Below, piece after piece: positions 24,036-42,252 of a stretch of 64,000 nucleotides of DNA. The DNA comes from Escherichia phage vB_EcoM_ESCO8: sequence record OM386653.1; one strand, given 5' to 3'. Below the pieces are notes generated by a model. That model was not told the DNA's origin, did not search any database, and saw only the letters and a program-made list of their open reading frames with translations. Within the stretch, counting starts at the first letter, position 1. Each line of letters starts with the position of its first letter. Position numbers and translations under genes: made by a program.

Positions 24036-24126
24036 ATTGCATAGTGAATGTTGCCATCCACGTGTTCATACTTTTATTGAACTTGTCGATAAAAAATGTT
24101 TGCATTATTCCTCCCATTTTATCCAA
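23938..24126 (-). CDS. hypothetical protein (62 aa)
   Basis: ORF track. Confidence 0.35.
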   Translation of the reverse strand: MDKMGGIMQTFFIDKFNKSMNTWMATFTMQFASFKDAQEWCDQHKDFDFYYQVNANLSPEEK

Positions 24127-24338
24127 AGGCAGTATTCTGGAACATAAACCTCCTTCCCTTTGTTATTTACAAAGGTGTACTCCACAAATTCTGCTTTATA
24201 TGTTTTGTTATATTCCTGTGCTGCTGGCACAGGACATTTTGTAATGCGCGTTTCAGTCCAACGGCGGTGTATAACCGCCTTGTTCTTTGGATCAAACGGA
24301 TGTATAAAGTGTGTTTTACTCATGCGCCATTTCCACAA
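24105..24338 (-). CDS. hypothetical protein (77 aa)
   Basis: ORF track. Confidence 0.4.
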   Translation of the reverse strand: MWKWRMSKTHFIHPFDPKNKAVIHRRWTETRITKCPVPAAQEYNKTYKAEFVEYTFVNNKGKEVYVPEYCLWIKWEE

Positions 24339-24720
24339 GATTTTTAATCATAGTTTCTCGACAGAGATTCCACATGTCCGAAGCAACCATAGAGGCATAT
24401 TCATCGGGGTTGGATTCTGGTAAAATCTCTTTAACTGCTTCTGGTGTCGGGTTGCACATAGCAGGTAGTGCTTTAAGTGCATCTTCAATAGAGAGCTTCT
24501 TACCTTCACTGTAAATAACTTCGTAAGCATAGTCATTTACATCTTCTGGAATATCTTGATCCAGGTAACGCACAGTAGAGTTATGCATTTTGTTCATAGC
24601 TTCACTAACACCAGCGCCACAAAGCTGTGCAACTTCTTTAGAGATACAGTCACAAATAACAACTTCATAAGGTTGTCCACCATAATACTGTGCATTATAT
24701 TTGATTTTAACAGACCACAT
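24316..24720 (-). CDS. hypothetical protein (134 aa)
   Basis: ORF track. Confidence 0.5.
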   Translation of the reverse strand: MWSVKIKYNAQYYGGQPYEVVICDCISKEVAQLCGAGVSEAMNKMHNSTVRYLDQDIPEDVNDYAYEVIYSEGKKLSIEDALKALPAMCNPTPEAVKEILPESNPDEYASMVASDMWNLCRETMIKNLVEMAHE

Positions 24721-24786: not shown

Positions 24787-25371
24787 TTACACATCCTCCA
24801 TTTGGAACATCTTCTTGTGGTTAGAATAGATCTGTTTGAAAATCTTGTCAAGGCGTTCATATGATTCTTTATGCTCTTGTTTCCATCCGTGATTTCGGAT
24901 TTTATCTGCTAGGTCATACGCCTCGCATAAAACTTTGGCAAAGTTGGTATTATCTATAGCACAAGCCTCAAAACCTTGAACTAAACCCTCTACATCATAC
25001 CACGTATAGTCAGAGTCACTAGGAGGCTTTCCTGCATCGGCTAAACGTTGCCTCACCCATTCGATACGTTTTTCATTCAAATGGCACTTACCTTCTCTAC
25101 ACTCTTGTTCTAATTCTTCTTTAGATTCATTGAATGGGTGAAGGACAGGTAGCTCTGCTTTTTGCAATTGCTCCAGATATTCTCCTACAATACGCATAGC
25201 TTCACTGTGTGTACACTTTCTACCTGTGTGCCAGTAACGGAAGATACTTTCTGTTAAACAGATGTTTTTACTAAACATCGCATTGTCTTTAACATTCACT
25301 CTATTAGCCCAGTCTAAATAATATACATAAAACTGCAATAATTCATAACTGCTTGGTATAATTTTACTCAT
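24787..25371 (-). CDS. paralog family A member 1 (194 aa)
   Basis: Shares LLQFY..W, LHPFN, RIEWVRQRL motifs with 25995..26363, 28287..28661, 28802..29218. Confidence 0.55.
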   Translation of the reverse strand: MSKIIPSSYELLQFYVYYLDWANRVNVKDNAMFSKNICLTESIFRYWHTGRKCTHSEAMRIVGEYLEQLQKAELPVLHPFNESKEELEQECREGKCHLNEKRIEWVRQRLADAGKPPSDSDYTWYDVEGLVQGFEACAIDNTNFAKVLCEAYDLADKIRNHGWKQEHKESYERLDKIFKQIYSNHKKMFQMEDV

Positions 25372-25549
25372 AGCCTCTCCTTAATTGTGAAAAATGTTAT
25401 CAATCAATATGACTAGTAATACAAGGATAGAAGGGAGTAGGAACAGAAATCTTAACATTATGTGATGCGTGTGAGAAGCGGCTTTAGCGCCAGCCGCCAG
25501 TAAGCCTACTAATCCTACAATAAAGAGCAGTTGTTCAGGGACACCCATA

Positions 25550-25774
25550 TTATGGAACACTTGGATACTCCGTAAGTTCGGCTAACAATTGGATATGTGG
25601 ACACGTGAATTGTTGTCCTGGATAGCGTGAGCTAATATCATCCAGCAAAGCAATCACAGCATTGTGCAATGCTTCGTAATCTTCATAATACACCATCTCT
25701 CCATTAGGATCTTCAACAATATCACAGTGACAAGCGTGAGCAGTACACGCATCCCATTCCAGACGTTTTACCAT
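25550..25774 (-). CDS. hypothetical Cys/His-rich protein (74 aa)
   Basis: ORF track; CTAHACHC motif. Confidence 0.4.
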   Translation of the reverse strand: MVKRLEWDACTAHACHCDIVEDPNGEMVYYEDYEALHNAVIALLDDISSRYPGQQFTCPHIQLLAELTEYPSVP

Positions 25775-25783
25775 AAACCCTCC

Positions 25784-26032
25784 TTACTCATACATTTGAT
25801 AAGATACATAACGATTGCAATCAAGTGCGAGAAACTTTTCAGCATTTCTTTGATGCTTGAACACAATACACTGTTCTTTTTTAGCTGCACTTTCACGAGC
25901 TTCTCTTGCCATATACTCACCTAAACGAACGATACCAGAGAATAACACGTATGCAAGAATAAGACAAACAGTGATTGCACAGAAAGTTTTAAACTTAACC
26001 ATTGTATTCCTCCATATCACGAATACGATCAA
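25784..26032 (-). CDS. small membrane-anchored protein, paralog family B
   Basis: See 21696..21920. Confidence 0.45.
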   Translation of the reverse strand: MIVFVIWRNTMVKFKTFCAITVCLILAYVLFSGIVRLGEYMAREARESAAKKEQCIVFKHQRNAEKFLALDCNRYVSYQMYE

Positions 26033-26363
26033 TCACCCATTGTACACGTTCTTTATTAAGGTGTGCAATGCCTAGCTCTGTTTCCGTAAAGTAGTGCGAG
26101 AAATCCGTATTAAACGGATGTAAATGGTTCAAACCCGCTTTCTTAAATTGTTCCTTCATTTCCTCTCGTACAGAGGATTGGAGCTTTGATACATTCTCAA
26201 CATCTTTTATCCAAGCAATATTGTATAAGAAGTCTACAAGACACGTGCAAAGACCATAATGCTTTTTGCTAAAGTTTGTATCTTCTTGTTCTAACCACCA
26301 TTCATAAAATTGTAGCAAATAGGGGCTGCTTTTCATGTTACACACTTTATTATTTTCTTGCAT
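25995..26363 (-). CDS. paralog family A member 2 (122 aa)
   Basis: LLQFYEWWLEQ, GLCTCLVDFL, LHPFN, RVQWVIDRI motifs. Confidence 0.55.
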   Translation of the reverse strand: MQENNKVCNMKSSPYLLQFYEWWLEQEDTNFSKKHYGLCTCLVDFLYNIAWIKDVENVSKLQSSVREEMKEQFKKAGLNHLHPFNTDFSHYFTETELGIAHLNKERVQWVIDRIRDMEEYNG

Positions 26364-26372
26364 GGTTTCTCC

Positions 26373-26672
26373 TTAATGCCAATCTACGATCACTGAATCT
26401 ACAAAACCCTCTTTGGTGTTTAAAGCATACACCTTACTAAGCCCACGCTCTCGTAGTGTTTCCATAGCAAGATCAATCAAATCAACTTGTCGTTTCTTTG
26501 CTTGTTCATTTTTTGGATAGTCATCCAAACCGAAAACAGACGGTTTAAATGCTTTGGAGTATTTGCCAGTCTTAGCCTGATCATAACAGTCCTGAATAAT
26601 TTCCTCAATAGGAAACCATAAACCTTCTCCACTTTGCTTTGCAATACAACGCAGTTTTTCTGTAACAGTCAT
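26373..26672 (-). CDS. hypothetical protein (99 aa)
   Basis: ORF track. Confidence 0.45.
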   Translation of the reverse strand: MTVTEKLRCIAKQSGEGLWFPIEEIIQDCYDQAKTGKYSKAFKPSVFGLDDYPKNEQAKKRQVDLIDLAMETLRERGLSKVYALNTKEGFVDSVIVDWH

Positions 26673-26881
26673 TCTTCCTCTCCTTTCAATTTACACTCAA
26701 AGATACCATTCTTAATGTTATCTGTCAAATAAAGACTATCTTCTATCTCTTCTTTTGTATACACATAAGCCTCCTTTTCCACGTCTGTCAGACCTTGCAT
26801 CGGAGCTAGTAGCCACCAGCTCCGCCAGTCAAACATAGGAGACTTATCAGATACACGAAGAATGTATCTGTCATTACACAT
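26669..26881 (-). CDS. hypothetical protein (70 aa)
   Basis: ORF track. Confidence 0.4.
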   Translation of the reverse strand: MCNDRYILRVSDKSPMFDWRSWWLLAPMQGLTDVEKEAYVYTKEEIEDSLYLTDNIKNGIFECKLKGEEE

Positions 26882-26884
26882 ATA

Positions 26885-27337
26885 TTATACGATGTTCACA
26901 CTAATATCTGCAACACCAACAAGAGAATAGATTTCAACTACACTCTGTGTACGATCCAGCTTGTAACGTTTCGCCTCTTTTTCAACTTCCTCATGGGAGA
27001 TGGTTTCCATGATCGGAACTCCATCCACTACAAGCAGGTATTTCTCTTCGTGTTTACTTTTTGGTGCTTCCTCTAAGACTTCTACAAAATACTCAAACTC
27101 ACTTTTTGCAAGCAACGTGTAACACTGAAGAAAGTCTCCTTCATTTTGAGCGATAATTTCTTGTTCTCCTGCTAAGGATTGCAAAGCAGTGACACCATAC
27201 CAATCATCCACATCTAATACACGAAAATAGGAATCACCTAAAAAAGAAGCAATCCTACTATTGCACTCAGACACATTAGCAAACTTACGGATATAAGATG
27301 CGTTCTTAAAACGATACACTTTACCAATTTCAAACAT
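26885..27337 (-). CDS. hypothetical protein (150 aa)
   Basis: ORF track. Confidence 0.5.
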   Translation of the reverse strand: MFEIGKVYRFKNASYIRKFANVSECNSRIASFLGDSYFRVLDVDDWYGVTALQSLAGEQEIIAQNEGDFLQCYTLLAKSEFEYFVEVLEEAPKSKHEEKYLLVVDGVPIMETISHEEVEKEAKRYKLDRTQSVVEIYSLVGVADISVNIV

Positions 27338-27539
27338 TACACAACTCCTTATTGTTCAAGGGTAAAAGGAATGATTTCACCATAGCTGTATTGCATGGCA
27401 TTCACTTCTGCTTCTGCACGTTGTGCTAGTTCTAGTGTTGCACAGATTTTGTAAGGTACAGTGCTGCATTGGCTCCAGCCTGGGGTATTCTTTGTTACTA
27501 AGTACACAGTAGTTTGTTTATCCATCTTCTTTTCCTCTT

Positions 27540-27797
27540 TTAAACAGTATATTCGTGTGGAAGGAAAACATAGTCTTCTCCTTCAACAACATCAACTACT
27601 TTCCACTTCCAGCCAGGTACTTGGCTCATTGTCTTGAATGACACATAAGCAACTCCGCTGTAAGCGATATCGGCATCTAATATAAGAGGGAAAGCAACGT
27701 GTGTCAACCCCAGATAACCACAATTATTTTCAATACACACCTGAATGCTTTTCATGTTATGCTCCATTAAAGACGGGGCGCGTAGCGTTACGTTCAT
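27540..27797 (-). CDS. hypothetical protein (85 aa)
   Basis: ORF track. Confidence 0.45.
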   Translation of the reverse strand: MNVTLRAPSLMEHNMKSIQVCIENNCGYLGLTHVAFPLILDADIAYSGVAYVSFKTMSQVPGWKWKVVDVVEGEDYVFLPHEYTV

Positions 27798-28215
27798 CGT
27801 TCACTGTAATAAGGTTTTTCATAACCATAACACCCTGAATATAGCCTAGCCAACGATGGCGTTTGGTTTCAGACATACCATTACACCCATTCTGAATTTC
27901 ATTCAACATCCACAGTAAGTGGGAAACACCTGTTTCACTGGTATCTGGATCTTCTACAGAACTAAGAATAGTTTCATAGCGTTCACAAATTTCTGGGTAG
28001 AATTCATAATCCTGTTGTACATCTCGCATTTCTCGAATGAAGTGACGAGCAATAGGCTTCCCACGAAAATATTCATTGATGAAATCAATAACACACATCT
28101 CACTGCCTGTCACCACGGAAGGCGTTCCTATGTTAAATTGAACACTCACACCGCATTCTTTTACAAGATTATGTACACGCTCCGTGTTAGCAAGATACAA
28201 AGATACAGTTTTCAT
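27757..28215 (-). CDS. hypothetical protein (152 aa)
   Basis: ORF track. Confidence 0.5.
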   Translation of the reverse strand: MKTVSLYLANTERVHNLVKECGVSVQFNIGTPSVVTGSEMCVIDFINEYFRGKPIARHFIREMRDVQQDYEFYPEICERYETILSSVEDPDTSETGVSHLLWMLNEIQNGCNGMSETKRHRWLGYIQGVMVMKNLITVNDERNATRPVFNGA

Positions 28216-28286
28216 TTACACCTCTCATTAGTAGTTTTGTTATGCGCGATATTGCATATTTTATGGAACACAGTGTACAGGCATTT

Positions 28287-28661
28287 CTATTCAATGCAAG
28301 CATTATTTGCATCTTCGATTCTGTCTTTCACCCATTGAAGACGTAACGTGTTGGTATGACACGCCAAGTCTATACACTCTGAAAGGTAATCCATGCAATC
28401 TGCATTGAACGGAAGATTGTAGTCCAGTCCTGCACATGTAAATTGTTTCCTCATTTCGTATTTCAAACTATCCAACAAACGATCACGCCATCTTTTATCT
28501 TCTTCTCTAGTTACCTCACCAACAAAATCATCTACATAATCTACCAGACAACCACATAAGCCACTCGTTGTGCGATTCATTGCAGGATGGTTGGCAATCC
28601 ATGCTTTATAGAATCGTATTAAAGCTGCACTACTCAACGGAATATTACTTTTCATGATCAC
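28287..28661 (-). CDS. paralog family A member 3 (124 aa)
   Basis: LIRFYKAWIANHP, GLCGCLVDYV, FTCAGLDYNLPFN, RLQWVKDRIEDANN motifs. Confidence 0.55.
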   Translation of the reverse strand: MIMKSNIPLSSAALIRFYKAWIANHPAMNRTTSGLCGCLVDYVDDFVGEVTREEDKRWRDRLLDSLKYEMRKQFTCAGLDYNLPFNADCMDYLSECIDLACHTNTLRLQWVKDRIEDANNACIE

Positions 28662-28827
28662 CTCCTAACTTAAGTATTCTACCTAGCAGATAAAAGAATG
28701 CCTGTATTGCACTAAGGAACATACACAAAATAATAAGAAGTCCGAAACCGACAAAACCTGCTTTTATCATTAACCAAACTATTCCAACCAATTCCCACAT
28801 TCTACACACCCTTACATGAATCGGCAA
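28645..28827 (-). CDS. small membrane protein (60 aa)
   Basis: ORF track; hydrophobic. Confidence 0.35.
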   Translation of the reverse strand: MPIHVRVCRMWELVGIVWLMIKAGFVGFGLLIILCMFLSAIQAFFYLLGRILKLGGDHEK

Positions 28828-29218
28828 TACGATCTTTCACCCACTGCAATCTCCCTGGGTTCGTATGGCAAGAATGTTTCTTACCTTCATCTTCATAACA
28901 CAGAAGATCATCATTAAAGGGCAGGAAGGAGGATAGCCCAGCACACGTGAATTGCAATTTCATCTCTTCCAGCGTTTTGCTACGAACCATTTTGAAATGT
29001 TCTATATCTTCTTGCGTAGGCTTTTTCTTTGACATAGCGGATGCCAGATAATCCATAAGGCAAATACACAAACCAACATTCTCACGATGCATTGAGGAAT
29101 GATCTTCCATCCATGCTTTGTAGAATTCTAACAGCAGTGGACTGCTAAGAGGAACACACATATCAGACTCCTTTATAAGATTACGTTTCATGCCACACAT
29201 CATATAGCATCTTTTCAT
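28802..29218 (-). CDS. paralog family A member 4 (138 aa)
   Basis: LLLEFYKAWMEDHS, GLCICLMDYL, FTCAGLSSFLPFN, RLQWVKDRIADSCKG motifs. Confidence 0.55.
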   Translation of the reverse strand: MKRCYMMCGMKRNLIKESDMCVPLSSPLLLEFYKAWMEDHSSMHRENVGLCICLMDYLASAMSKKKPTQEDIEHFKMVRSKTLEEMKLQFTCAGLSSFLPFNDDLLCYEDEGKKHSCHTNPGRLQWVKDRIADSCKGV

Positions 29219-29520
29219 CTGTTACAAGAACAGCAACATAGGAACATCATTAATGAAGGATTTAGTATAGGATTTCCCTATCAATTATTCTATATATACC
29301 TATTATTTTTAACACACCCCTTTGTACATAATATAGACAAATAAATATCTATGCCACAAAAATTTTCCGGTATACCCGATTTATTTCGACACACCCCCTT
29401 TTCATAAACGTAAAGTCAATAATATCAATAACTTGCCGCAAAATACTGCTCGCTTGCGAGAGGTGCTTAACGCGATTTTCAGCGCCCCCCGATTTCTGCC
29501 GACCGTCCCCCTCAAATATC

Positions 29521-29543
29521 AATGAGAATTATTATCATTTGCA
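29521..29543. promoter_or_regulatory. Fur-box-like palindromic site 1 (aatgagaattattatcatttgc)
   Basis: 14 of 19 match to GATAATGATAATCATTATC by eye; AATGA...TCATT inverted repeat. Confidence 0.35.
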
Positions 29544-29718
29544 TTATCATTCAATGACTTATAAGACTTTTGATTATTTTCTGAGCAAGAAAGGCACTAC
29601 TCACAACAAAACAGATAAATTCTAAGTAAATCAATGGCTTGGCATTTCTAAACATCTATATACACCTTGCCAAATGAAATGATCTGGCGTGAAATAGTGC
29701 CACCCGTGGAAGATAGCT

Positions 29719-29737
29719 GATAATGATTCTCATTTGC
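29719..29737. promoter_or_regulatory. Fur-box-like site 2 (gataatgattctcatttgc)
   Basis: Exact GATAATGAT half-site; 15 of 19 to Fur consensus; near-identical copy at 42212-42230. Confidence 0.4.
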
Positions 29738-30568
29738 ATACTTTCTGTACTATAAAACCGACTAAAAATCAAGATAATTCTATTTTATTGCGCTTTTAAG
29801 AAAGTAGGCTCAACAAATGGTAAGTTATATTGCAACAAATAGGGATAGTTATGCCCGACAAATAACAACAATAGTATGAAAAATCATCTATTCGGATGTA
29901 AATAATTTTGCGCAATAGCACTGTGTTCCCATAGCGCCCCCTGGAGGGTGGCGCATTATGATCATCAATGTCATTATTCACCATGTTTATTATTGCATAG
30001 CTTATATTATAGCCAATGTTCTAAACATTAGCTAATAATAACGCACCGCAACAATGTAAGGGAATACAATATACCATGTATATTGTTGCGCTTGCAATTG
30101 TTGCAAGCTACATAAGCACAGATAATAACTATCGGTGATGGTTATTATGTGGGGTGTGTAGTTGCGTTATTATTAGCCGCCTATGTGTCCGGCATAGGCT
30201 GCTAATGATACGCTTGCGAATTATATTTCTTGTTATAGTTATTGTATGGAATGATTACTGTATGAAATGATTATTTAGGTAATAGATAGGAAGGTAAAGA
30301 TTAGATCATAAATAGATAGGATATTAATTATTTAGTAATGTTACTAACAATTTAATAGTTACTTTGTGCAACAATTCGATAGATTATAGTTATAGTTTTA
30401 AAGGTTAGATAGATTATATTTAGCTTAGTAATGATTTATATTGGTTATTGTTGTTTAATATAAGGTTATCAATGAGATAGTAACAGTAAGTTATAAATAA
30501 AGGTGAGATAATTAGTTTTAATTTAGTTAGATAACTTATTATTTTATAGGTTAGATGGTCATAAGTTA

Positions 30569-30589
30569 AGAATGATTATCATTATTGCA
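30569..30589. promoter_or_regulatory. Fur-box-like site 3 (aagAATGATtATCATTATtgc)
   Basis: Perfect 13-bp palindrome AATGATtATCATT matching the Fur-box core. Confidence 0.4.
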
Positions 30590-30626
30590 TTATGCAGTTT
30601 ATTGCATAAATAATCAGCTATAAATA

Positions 30627-30645
30627 AGAATGATTATCATTTAAG
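30627..30645. promoter_or_regulatory. Fur-box-like site 4 (aagAATGATtATCATTtaa)
   Basis: Same perfect palindrome 45 bp from site 3. Confidence 0.4.
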
Positions 30646-30855
30646 AGGAAAGACAAGAAAAAGGCTGTTTTTTCCCGATAGTTACATTGAGAAATTAAAA
30701 ATAAGCGGTCTAAAACACGCTGTAAGCGCCTTATGATCTTCATGGTATGGTTGTTCATCTGCTCCTTGATTAGCTCGATACCGCGATCTATTCACTTTTT
30801 TCGGTGAACGTTTTTGATAGGTAAAAGCTATCATATTTATTTAGGTAAAAAGAAA

Positions 30856-30872
30856 GGGCGCTTTGTGCGCCC
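30856..30872 (-). terminator. terminator hairpin (gggcgcTTTGTgcgccc) at 3' end of minus-strand array
   Basis: GC hairpin followed by T-rich run on minus strand, just downstream of CDS 30889..31272. Confidence 0.5.
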
Positions 30873-30888
30873 TGGTATGAAATGTTAT

Positions 30889-31272
30889 TTACTGATAAGC
30901 AGGATCGTTTGTTATATCAATCCAATGAGCTAAATTAATTTTATTTTTTGCTTTCATTTTCTCGATCAAACGTTCGGCTAATGTCTCGGAACGAATATAA
31001 ACATAATCGCTAAAATCTTGCCCCGTTTCTTCGTCGATCATTTCCCTGTATTCAACCTTGCCGATAAACGCATGATTCAGCGCATAAGTTTTACCCGTGT
31101 ACCAGTTGTGTAAATGAATCTCGCATTTATAATCGTCGCTATAACCTTCGGTTGTTCTAACTTCAACCAAGTCACCTTTAAACACTGATAAGCACCACAT
31201 AGGATCACGATCTACAGCGCCGTTAAAATCTTTACCGTTTACAGTCGCTGCCAGGTTGATGATATTGCTCAT
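30889..31272 (-). CDS. hypothetical protein (127 aa)
   Basis: ORF track; first gene of PeSL-associated array. Confidence 0.5.
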   Translation of the reverse strand: MSNIINLAATVNGKDFNGAVDRDPMWCLSVFKGDLVEVRTTEGYSDDYKCEIHLHNWYTGKTYALNHAFIGKVEYREMIDEETGQDFSDYVYIRSETLAERLIEKMKAKNKINLAHWIDITNDPAYQ

Positions 31273-42138: not shown

Positions 42139-42252
42139 AAATGAGAAAATTCTCATTTGCTAATGATTCTCATTCTCTTACTGAGAATGATTATCACTTA
42201 CATACTTAAATGATAATGATTCTCATTTACAAATGAAAATGATTATCATACG
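42139..42252. promoter_or_regulatory. cluster of five Fur-box-like palindromic sites
   Basis: aatgagaaAAttctcatt (8+8 palindrome), AATGAttcTCATT, gAATGATtATCAc, GATAATGATtctCATTtac, AATGATtATCATa within 114 bp. Confidence 0.4.

Follow-up and report, generated by a model that had tools for sequence, protein, structure and literature searches.

Four diverged paralogs of an uncharacterised phage protein family at a probable genome terminus of a phi92-like coliphage

Four related genes at one locus

The stretch of DNA discussed here (the window) comprises 64,000 nucleotides of Escherichia phage vB_EcoM_ESCO8 (sequence record OM386653.1) and carries, on its minus strand, four small genes that we call A, B, C and D (Table 1). 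An earlier reading of the letters alone, hereafter the sequence-only reading, had grouped them as a four-member paralogous family, and pairwise BLASTP comparison bears this out. C and D are 46% identical (expected value, E, 3e-33), B and D 40% (E 3e-26) and B and C 37% (E 4e-21), while A is 31% identical to B over 114 amino acids (aa; E 1e-11) and aligns with C and D in its C-terminal half only (E ~1e-8). Each of the four independently matches PHROG 2510, a family of unknown function (E-values of 6e-17, 1.4e-25, 4.4e-24 and 6.7e-21 for A, B, C and D, respectively), and A matches PHROG 27059 in addition (E 1.6e-138). To judge from these comparisons, A-D are true, diverged paralogs of one family, of which a hidden Markov model (HMM) run against all six-frame open reading frames (ORFs) of at least 35 aa found no fifth copy in the window.

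All four ORFs proposed by the sequence-only reading exist, two of them with a different start, and their products can be aligned along the entire length that they share. The GTG at 28661 earlier given for C falls within the ribosome-binding site, and the start at 29218 earlier given for D is that of the longest ORF; the ATG codons at 28655 and 29161, which match the annotation in relatives, are the most likely starts. These over-extended start codons are the sole point in favour of the idea that the shared motifs are coincidental or of low complexity, or that the ORFs are not real genes, an idea whose probability we consider negligible. It is refuted by pairwise E-values as low as that of C and D, by hundreds of homologs, by ratios of non-synonymous to synonymous substitution (dN/dS) of 0.09-0.22, by strong ribosome-binding sites and by a confident fold prediction. 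Where low-complexity coincidence or assignment to unrelated HMM families would have spoken against kinship, a single PHROG family was found to unite the four proteins.

Table 1. Features of the window (positions count from its first nucleotide) and places of family members near the left end of other phage genomes
Feature	Position	Strand	Description
Paralog A	24787-25371	-	194 aa; ortholog of Phi92_gp010; most divergent member
Paralog B	25995-26363	-	122 aa; ortholog of Phi92_gp006 (so annotated in phi92 and PATM)
Paralog C	28287-28655	-	122 aa from ATG 28655; ribosome-binding site AGGAGG
Paralog D	28802-29161	-	119 aa from ATG 29161; AAGGAG 7 nt upstream
Non-coding leader	29248-29810	-	97% identical over 565 nt to phi92 left end (blastn, phi92 1-565 against the window)
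Counterpart of phi92 left direct terminal repeat	29810-29468		343 bp, as annotated in phi92
Phage_30_8 gene	30889-31272		upstream of D across the junction
Small hydrophobic ORF	28645-28800	-	51 aa; between D and C; stop overlaps C start by 11 nt
ORF in the place of phi92 gp001	27757-28215	-	152 aa
ORF with goF-like match	26885-27337	-	150 aa
ORF with Lar-like match	25550-25774	-	74 aa
Downstream neighbour	24316-24720		
DUF7202 gene	24105-24323		T4 Tk.3-like
Stretch without convincing gene	29220-30880		~1.6 kb
Extremely AT-rich stretch	30240-30660		with short direct repeats
Fur box-like copies	29719-29737, 30568-30586, 42159-42177, 42212-42230	-	
17-mers related to the Fur box-like motif	29523, 29718, 30567, 30625		
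Family in RHEph08 (T7-like)	1.7-2.9 kb from left end		
Family in RHph_TM38 (Rhizobium phage)	0.4 kb from left end		
Family in N4 (N4-like)	1.2 kb from left end		
Family in Kuerle, Ea9-2, Axy10, phiAxp-3 (N4-like)	1.9-2.9 kb from left end		

Phage identity and position at the genome end

A 6-kb query around the locus matched 125 phage records with identities of up to 97%, nearly all of them phi92-like coliphages. These belong to the Stephanstirmvirinae (Justusliebigvirus and Phapecoctavirus) and have genomes of ~146 kb, and by these matches the window comes from a phi92-like (Justusliebigvirus) coliphage. In annotated relatives, all genes of this stretch are labelled 'hypothetical'.

The window spans joined genome ends, since the left end of phi92 (positions 1-565) aligns with the non-coding leader upstream of D, from 29810 to 29248. 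Past the counterpart of the terminal repeat annotated in phi92, on whose homology the terminal position of D and C rests, these two are the first genes, D and then C, with a small hydrophobic ORF between them. Upstream of D, across the junction, comes the Phage_30_8 gene followed by a terminator-like hairpin, and the arrangement is the same in Phapecoctavirus-type contigs, where Phage_30_8, ~1.5 kb of non-coding DNA and then one to three family genes succeed one another. The region of A-D is very probably the part of the genome that is expressed first, early expression being what their position reasonably leads one to expect, and the sequence-only reading, which had placed the genes in an early block, agrees with this position as well as with that of a relative in the early region of phage N4 (see below).

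Family motifs and predicted fold

Five ordered motifs define the family, S-S-x-x-L-x-x-F-Y, G-L-C, E-x-x-x-Q-F-x-x-A-G-L-x4-P-F-N, Y-x-x-E and (C)H-x-N-x-x-R-x-x-W-V, all of which are present in B, C and D. A has SKNICLTES instead of GLCxCL, FYVYY instead of FYxxW, and leucine in the place of the QF phenylalanine. The motif list of the sequence-only reading is exact for C and D, close for B and only partly right for A, which has no GLCxC; where it gave 60-70% identity for the terminal boxes, the conserved boxes measure 46-81% among B, C and D and 20-62% in pairs with A, and its variable middles hold good, with 0-17% identity between paralogs in residues 44-65.

Among 115 diverse family members, and in the 124-aa numbering of C that is used for conserved positions throughout, S11, L14, F17, Y18, G34, L35, C36, L39, E69, Q73, F74, A77, G78, L79, P84, F85, Y92, N104, R107, W110 and V111 are near-invariant, and N38, N86, E95 and H102 are retained in most. 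Y18 and R107 occur in 115/115 members, C36 in 114/115, N104 in 103/115 and H102 in 84/115. The distance from GLC to QF, which takes in the last part of helix 2, a loop and the first part of helix 3, varies between 11 and 41 residues, versus a PF-to-WV distance of 28 in 90 of 149 domains, which makes the hairpin between helices 2 and 3 the main variable element.

The AlphaFold2 model of C, computed from a 25-sequence alignment, has a mean predicted local distance difference test (pLDDT) score of 91.5 and a predicted template modelling score of 0.84, and consists of five helices (residues 12-22, 35-47, 53-76, 89-97 and 105-123). The model of A reproduces this five-helix order with pLDDT ~92-97 over the family domain (residues 1-112), beyond which a disordered linker (115-125) leads to a C-terminal module of three helices, modelled with low confidence (pLDDT 50-73). 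Relatives of the C model exist in BFVD (template modelling scores of up to 0.75-0.80), and no matching solved structure was found for it in the PDB. The family fold is therefore predicted to be a five-helix, all-alpha domain of ~100 aa without solved relative. The four proteins are mildly acidic, with isoelectric points (pI) of 5.84, 5.50, 5.16 and 6.18 and net charges of -2 to -5.

Comparison with named families

The sequence-only reading did not recognise the family. None of A-D scores above the curated cut-off of any Pfam-A or NCBIfam model, none of the 115 diverse members (0/115) matches Pfam at E<=0.01, and PADLOC models gave no meaningful match for the window proteins. As far as these libraries go, the family carries no curated name and falls into PHROG families of unknown function only, related clusters being PHROG 2510, 6418 and 27059, with orthologs in outra tagged pVOG VOG7392. 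In the papers and libraries searched, no function was found for any family member, nor did the literature yield functional data on these PHROG families, the early genes of phi92, N4 gp3 or N4 gp8.

Two resemblances to named proteins were considered and discarded. The first is to Crl, an alpha/beta protein that binds sigma-S. Residues 8-75 of B match it weakly (PF07417, E 0.09; NF008217, E 0.012), with phrog_18153 as a possible further weak match of this type, and it was rejected on a score of 13.1 bits against a cut-off of 27, an hhalign probability of 2.5% and an all-alpha model. The second is to DNA-mimic anti-restriction proteins of the Ocr or ArdA type, for which a pI of ~4 is expected, versus 5.2-6.2 here, and to which there is no fold match.

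A large phage family that includes N4 gp3

Word-indexed protein searches recovered few relatives (30, 16 and 1), and the true size of the family is visible only by exhaustive HMM search, which returned 913 clusters at 50% identity (E<=1e-3), 232 of them at E<=1e-10, most being single domains of 95-130 aa. A scan of IMG/VR gave 4 loci only. When two different members were compared by tblastn with 50,697 phage records, 177 and 273 of these were matched, at up to seven places per genome. Named members, all of them hypothetical proteins of phages, come from Citrobacter phage Tr1, Burkholderia phages BcepSauron, BcepSaruman and JG068, Escherichia phage Av-05, Pectobacterium phage Wc4, Klebsiella phage KP8, Achromobacter phage Axy12, Rhizobium phages Palo and RHEph08, and Delftia phages RG-2014 and PhiW-14. 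Their hosts are alpha-, beta- and gamma-Proteobacteria, and the family appears to be confined to phages of Proteobacteria. It was found neither at the nucleotide level in 5,426 complete E. coli genomes nor at the protein level in the 72,556 plasmids of PLSDB, and a degenerate DNA pattern run against 185,579 species genomes gave one true match, on a 367-bp contig. Rarity in bacterial genomes is supported by these searches and not proven, since the pattern covers only ~19% of known members.

Many relatives hold two or three tandem family domains in one polypeptide, joined by linkers of 1-6 residues (for example, RHEph08 (L005) 2287-2946 as well as P0034, P0035, P0040, P0041, P0055, P0072 and P0084), which suggests that single-domain members may act as dimers or higher oligomers. 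A few others are fused to DUF551 (N-terminal in the Av-05 cluster, P0071; PF04448, E 2e-08) or to unannotated segments, fusion partners that give no functional clue. The PF04448 domain is absent from A-D. A DUF551-based link to yfdS/yfdT of the E. coli element CPS-53, a cluster that when overexpressed inhibits DnaA-dependent initiation (PMC4776307), was dropped, the HMM finding no family member in the CPS-53 region.

The best-known relative is gp3 of phage N4 (N4 1214-1528), which matches an HMM built from 115 members with an E of 2e-21. It keeps GLC, LPFN, DY..E and CHLN..R..W; E69 and Q73 are not kept. Like the genes of the window, it is small and lies near a left genome end, in its case inside the experimentally defined early region of N4, and it differs from them in being single-copy, versus four here, and in having no E..QF..AGL box. 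The left-end genes of N4, gp3 among them, are early genes transcribed by the injected virion RNA polymerase, and the immediate neighbours of gp3, gp1 and gp2, are cofactors of N4 RNAPII (PMC4496689). Across N4-like and T7-like phages, family members lie 0.4-3.3 kb from the left end.

This setting raises the question of whether the family serves the phage's own programme, as a cofactor of early-to-middle transcription, in the initiation of replication or in the completion of DNA entry. The conserved place beside gp1 and gp2, the purifying selection described below and the presence of members in many lineages with their own RNA polymerases (N4-like, T7-like) would all fit. We nevertheless hold such a role to be quite improbable, for phi92 and several relatives without D and/or C are still viable isolates, the family varies from one to seven places per genome and extends to T1-like and other phages that have no RNA polymerase of their own, no DNA-binding domain was detected in the mildly acidic proteins, and the likeness to sigma-S-binding Crl is spurious.

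Selection and remodelling of the gene set

Across 13 related loci, the orthologs are 91-99% identical (95-98% for A), and their pooled Nei-Gojobori dN/dS values are 0.11 for A, 0.09 for B, 0.21 for C and 0.22 for D. In 15 neighbouring genes the ratio lies between 0.03 and 0.50, and A-D show no excess over them. The orthologs of A-D are under purifying selection, and A-D are therefore functional. The diversifying selection that the sequence-only reading had invoked is not supported by these values.

What has changed instead is the gene set itself. Phi92 is without the segment 28338-29247 of the window, that is, D and most of C, of which the 3' tail remains, and KKE7M, EC.P2 and JLBYU50 have one gene that joins the body of D to the tail of C (…RLQWVKDRI-EDANNACIE), which is the product expected of unequal crossover at the conserved C-terminal box. 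The C-type tail recurs in many alleles that have otherwise diverged (46-93% identity to C), and the number of family copies beside the terminus varies from one to three. D and C are dispensable, since phi92 is without them and other relatives have a single D/C hybrid.

A second kind of change is seen in C, which shares 96-100% nucleotide identity across the gene (about 28640-28290; ~97% overall) with the third array gene of Phapecoctavirus phiWec181. Identity drops to 50-83% just outside the gene, and the neighbouring proteins are 28-64% identical. Such near-identity between genera, limited to one gene, points to a recent exchange of a single-gene cassette. Taken together, these comparisons indicate that diversity in the family stems from cassette exchange, unequal crossover and insertions or deletions in the helix 2-helix 3 hairpin, and not from diversifying selection.

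What the proteins may do

Restriction to phages, proximity to the terminus, small size, dispensability, cassette mobility and a scaffold that is conserved except for a single hypervariable hairpin lead us to favour, tentatively and with less than even confidence, the reading that A-D are dispensable early accessory proteins which share a scaffold and bind host targets with differing specificities. They would be made from the first DNA entering the cell, and each paralog would stoichiometrically bind one host macromolecule, be it a defence component or a housekeeping protein, a mechanism that strikes us as the most economical one and is put forward with the same reserve. In structural terms, the conserved boxes (SS..L..FY, GLC, E..QF..AGL...PFN, Y..E and CH.N..R..WV) would build the common scaffold, and helix 4 and the helix 2-helix 3 hairpin, whose length varies, would form the specificity surface that directs each paralog to its own target. 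Cassettes passing from phage to phage, and unequal crossover at the conserved boxes, would reshape the gene set. Of the elements of this picture, paralogy, the predicted fold, restriction to phages, the place beside the genome end, dispensability, cassette exchange and purifying selection were observed, and early expression of A-D, protein binding, the part played by the hairpin and the link to host defence are inferred.

Several points weigh against this accessory role. These are that (i) the low dN/dS values amount to no arms-race signature among close orthologs, (ii) no likeness to known anti-defence or host-takeover proteins was found by sequence or fold, (iii) terminus proximity is deduced from the annotated repeat of phi92, and (iv) phages whose hosts differ widely have some ten polar residues in common (C36, N86, Y92, E95, H102, N104, R107 and others), as one would sooner expect of a catalytic or ligand-binding site than of an inhibitor that works by protein-protein contact.

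The last of these points opens another possibility, which we regard as unlikely, namely that the proteins bind a ligand or metal, or are small enzymes, through C36, N86, Y92, E95, (C101)H102, N104 and R107. One form of it would be a sponge for nucleotide immune signals, the paralogs differing in ligand preference or partners. Acb2, Tad1 and Tad2 are phage sponges for immune signalling molecules, and known sponges act as oligomers. The proteins of the family resemble them in being small (~100 aa), phage-only and presumably early, in their conserved polar residues and in their probable oligomeric state, to which the tandem two- and three-domain versions point. Several polar residues are nearly invariant in the 115 diverse members, the PFN-to-WV spacing is fixed, and N86, E95, N104 and C101 covary across the family, as expected of residues that lie close together. 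Much of the polar cluster may nonetheless be structural, as suggested by the facts that part of it covaries rather than being fixed and that E69 and Q73 are absent from N4 gp3; S11, G34 and N104-P105 sit at helix N-caps, where their role may be purely structural. Multi-copy arrays with hypervariable hairpins are, moreover, atypical of sponges. A Cys3His metal site, which the CxC...CH of the phi92-like copies would allow, is unsupported as a conserved feature, since positions 38 (usually Asn) and 101 neither covary nor preferentially co-occur as cysteines across the family.

For the accessory, host-directed reading, the closest models in terms of organisation are the clusters of small early genes that virulent phages carry at the leading end of the genome, such as the class I genes of T7 (0.3/Ocr), the pre-early genes of T5, the host-takeover module of SPO1 and the terminal-repeat 'Tre' genes of Twort-like phages. 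By analogy, the window genes most plausibly work like such clusters, since they too lie next to the terminus, are small and dispensable, are presumably expressed in the first wave and come as several genes together; they show no sequence or fold similarity to them and are not DNA mimics. Another parallel is offered by poxvirus termini, which harbour multigene families, Bcl-2-like all-alpha immune modulators and 'gene accordions'. Here too a small all-alpha scaffold is found in diverged paralogs near termini, with copy number changed by recombination between paralogs; poxviruses infect eukaryotes, their families are not related to this one, and the parallel is an analogy only.

A bolder version of the host-directed reading, rather unlikely in our view to hold as a whole, would see in the N4-gp3-like domain a hitherto unrecognised, widespread counter-defence scaffold of new fold, made by phages of Proteobacteria from the first-entering DNA, whose hairpins neutralise different immune or entry-sensing components, perhaps at the membrane in concert with a co-translated hydrophobic ORF product, and in the terminal array a gene accordion that exchanges cassettes across phage genera.

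Significance

Over 100 deposited genomes already list these genes as hypothetical proteins, PHROGs and pVOGs have clustered them, and the locus represents an uncharacterised family within a well-known sort of phage gene set rather than a novel type of system. If the proteins are directed at the host or its defences, the family would open up a new and substantial reservoir of inhibitors, with its hundreds of clusters and the 273 cultured phage genomes found by one tblastn query, and with members in model phage N4 as well as in therapeutic-type coliphages. If they are merely ordinary dispensable early genes with subtle phenotypes, what we have is a well-delimited, unremarkable uncharacterised family. 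Grounds for modest follow-up are (i) the predicted new fold, any structure of which would be new, there being no solved relative, (ii) the breadth of the family, (iii) the link to N4 gp3, which together with naturally occurring two-, three- and four-copy phi92-like isolates offers knock-out-like comparisons, and (iv) the evidence for cassette exchange and crossover, which makes the locus a clean example of accessory-gene evolution by single-gene transfer between genera and unequal crossover, not by point-mutational arms races.

Neighbouring genes and side observations

The small hydrophobic ORF between D and C is annotated in Eryne, EC_OE_11 and AMO3598, is absent from outra, inny and PATM, and has no PHROG match. 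A similar hydrophobic leader is fused in-frame to the family domain in the metagenomic relative P0032.

Some neighbours of A-D give faint hints of the same functional neighbourhood. The 74-aa ORF has a weak Lar-like restriction-alleviation match (phrog_3592, E 8e-4) and is called a 'putative HNH endonuclease' in one relative, a probable over-annotation; the 150-aa ORF has a weak goF-like match (phrog_2980, E 2e-6); and the DUF7202 gene completes the set. The downstream neighbour of A is DUF551 according to the annotation of JLBYU50 and has no PF04448 match here at E<=0.01. Between A and the downstream gene, at the junction 24758/24759, phi92 and most relatives carry the 687-nt Phi92_gp011 (Eaa-like or ead/Ea22-like), which is missing from the window phage, AMO3598 and EC.P2. 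The 152-aa ORF has no detectable nucleotide similarity to the phi92 gene whose place it occupies; it seemingly consists of two modules, phrog_6496 at its N-terminus and phrog_7775/31753 at its C-terminus, and its coverage is only 64% in AMO3598, inny and EC.P2.

Among the database relatives, MG065645, MG065689, MG065639 and MG065656 are filed under 'Campylobacter phage' with Campylobacter jejuni as host, yet are 97% identical to this coliphage region, and their host assignment seems doubtful.

In the terminal region, two promoter-like AAAGGGGTGTGT...GGTATA boxes stand immediately upstream of D; over the region as a whole, the frequency of promoter-like sites is not above chance. A Fur box-like motif, GATAATGATAATCATTATC, occurs four times with at most three mismatches (<=3) versus 0.12 expected, its copies and the related 17-mers being listed in Table 1. 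These copies fall within the terminal non-coding region and another AT-rich stretch near 42.2 kb, and could be sites for host Fur or a phage-specific operator or promoter element.

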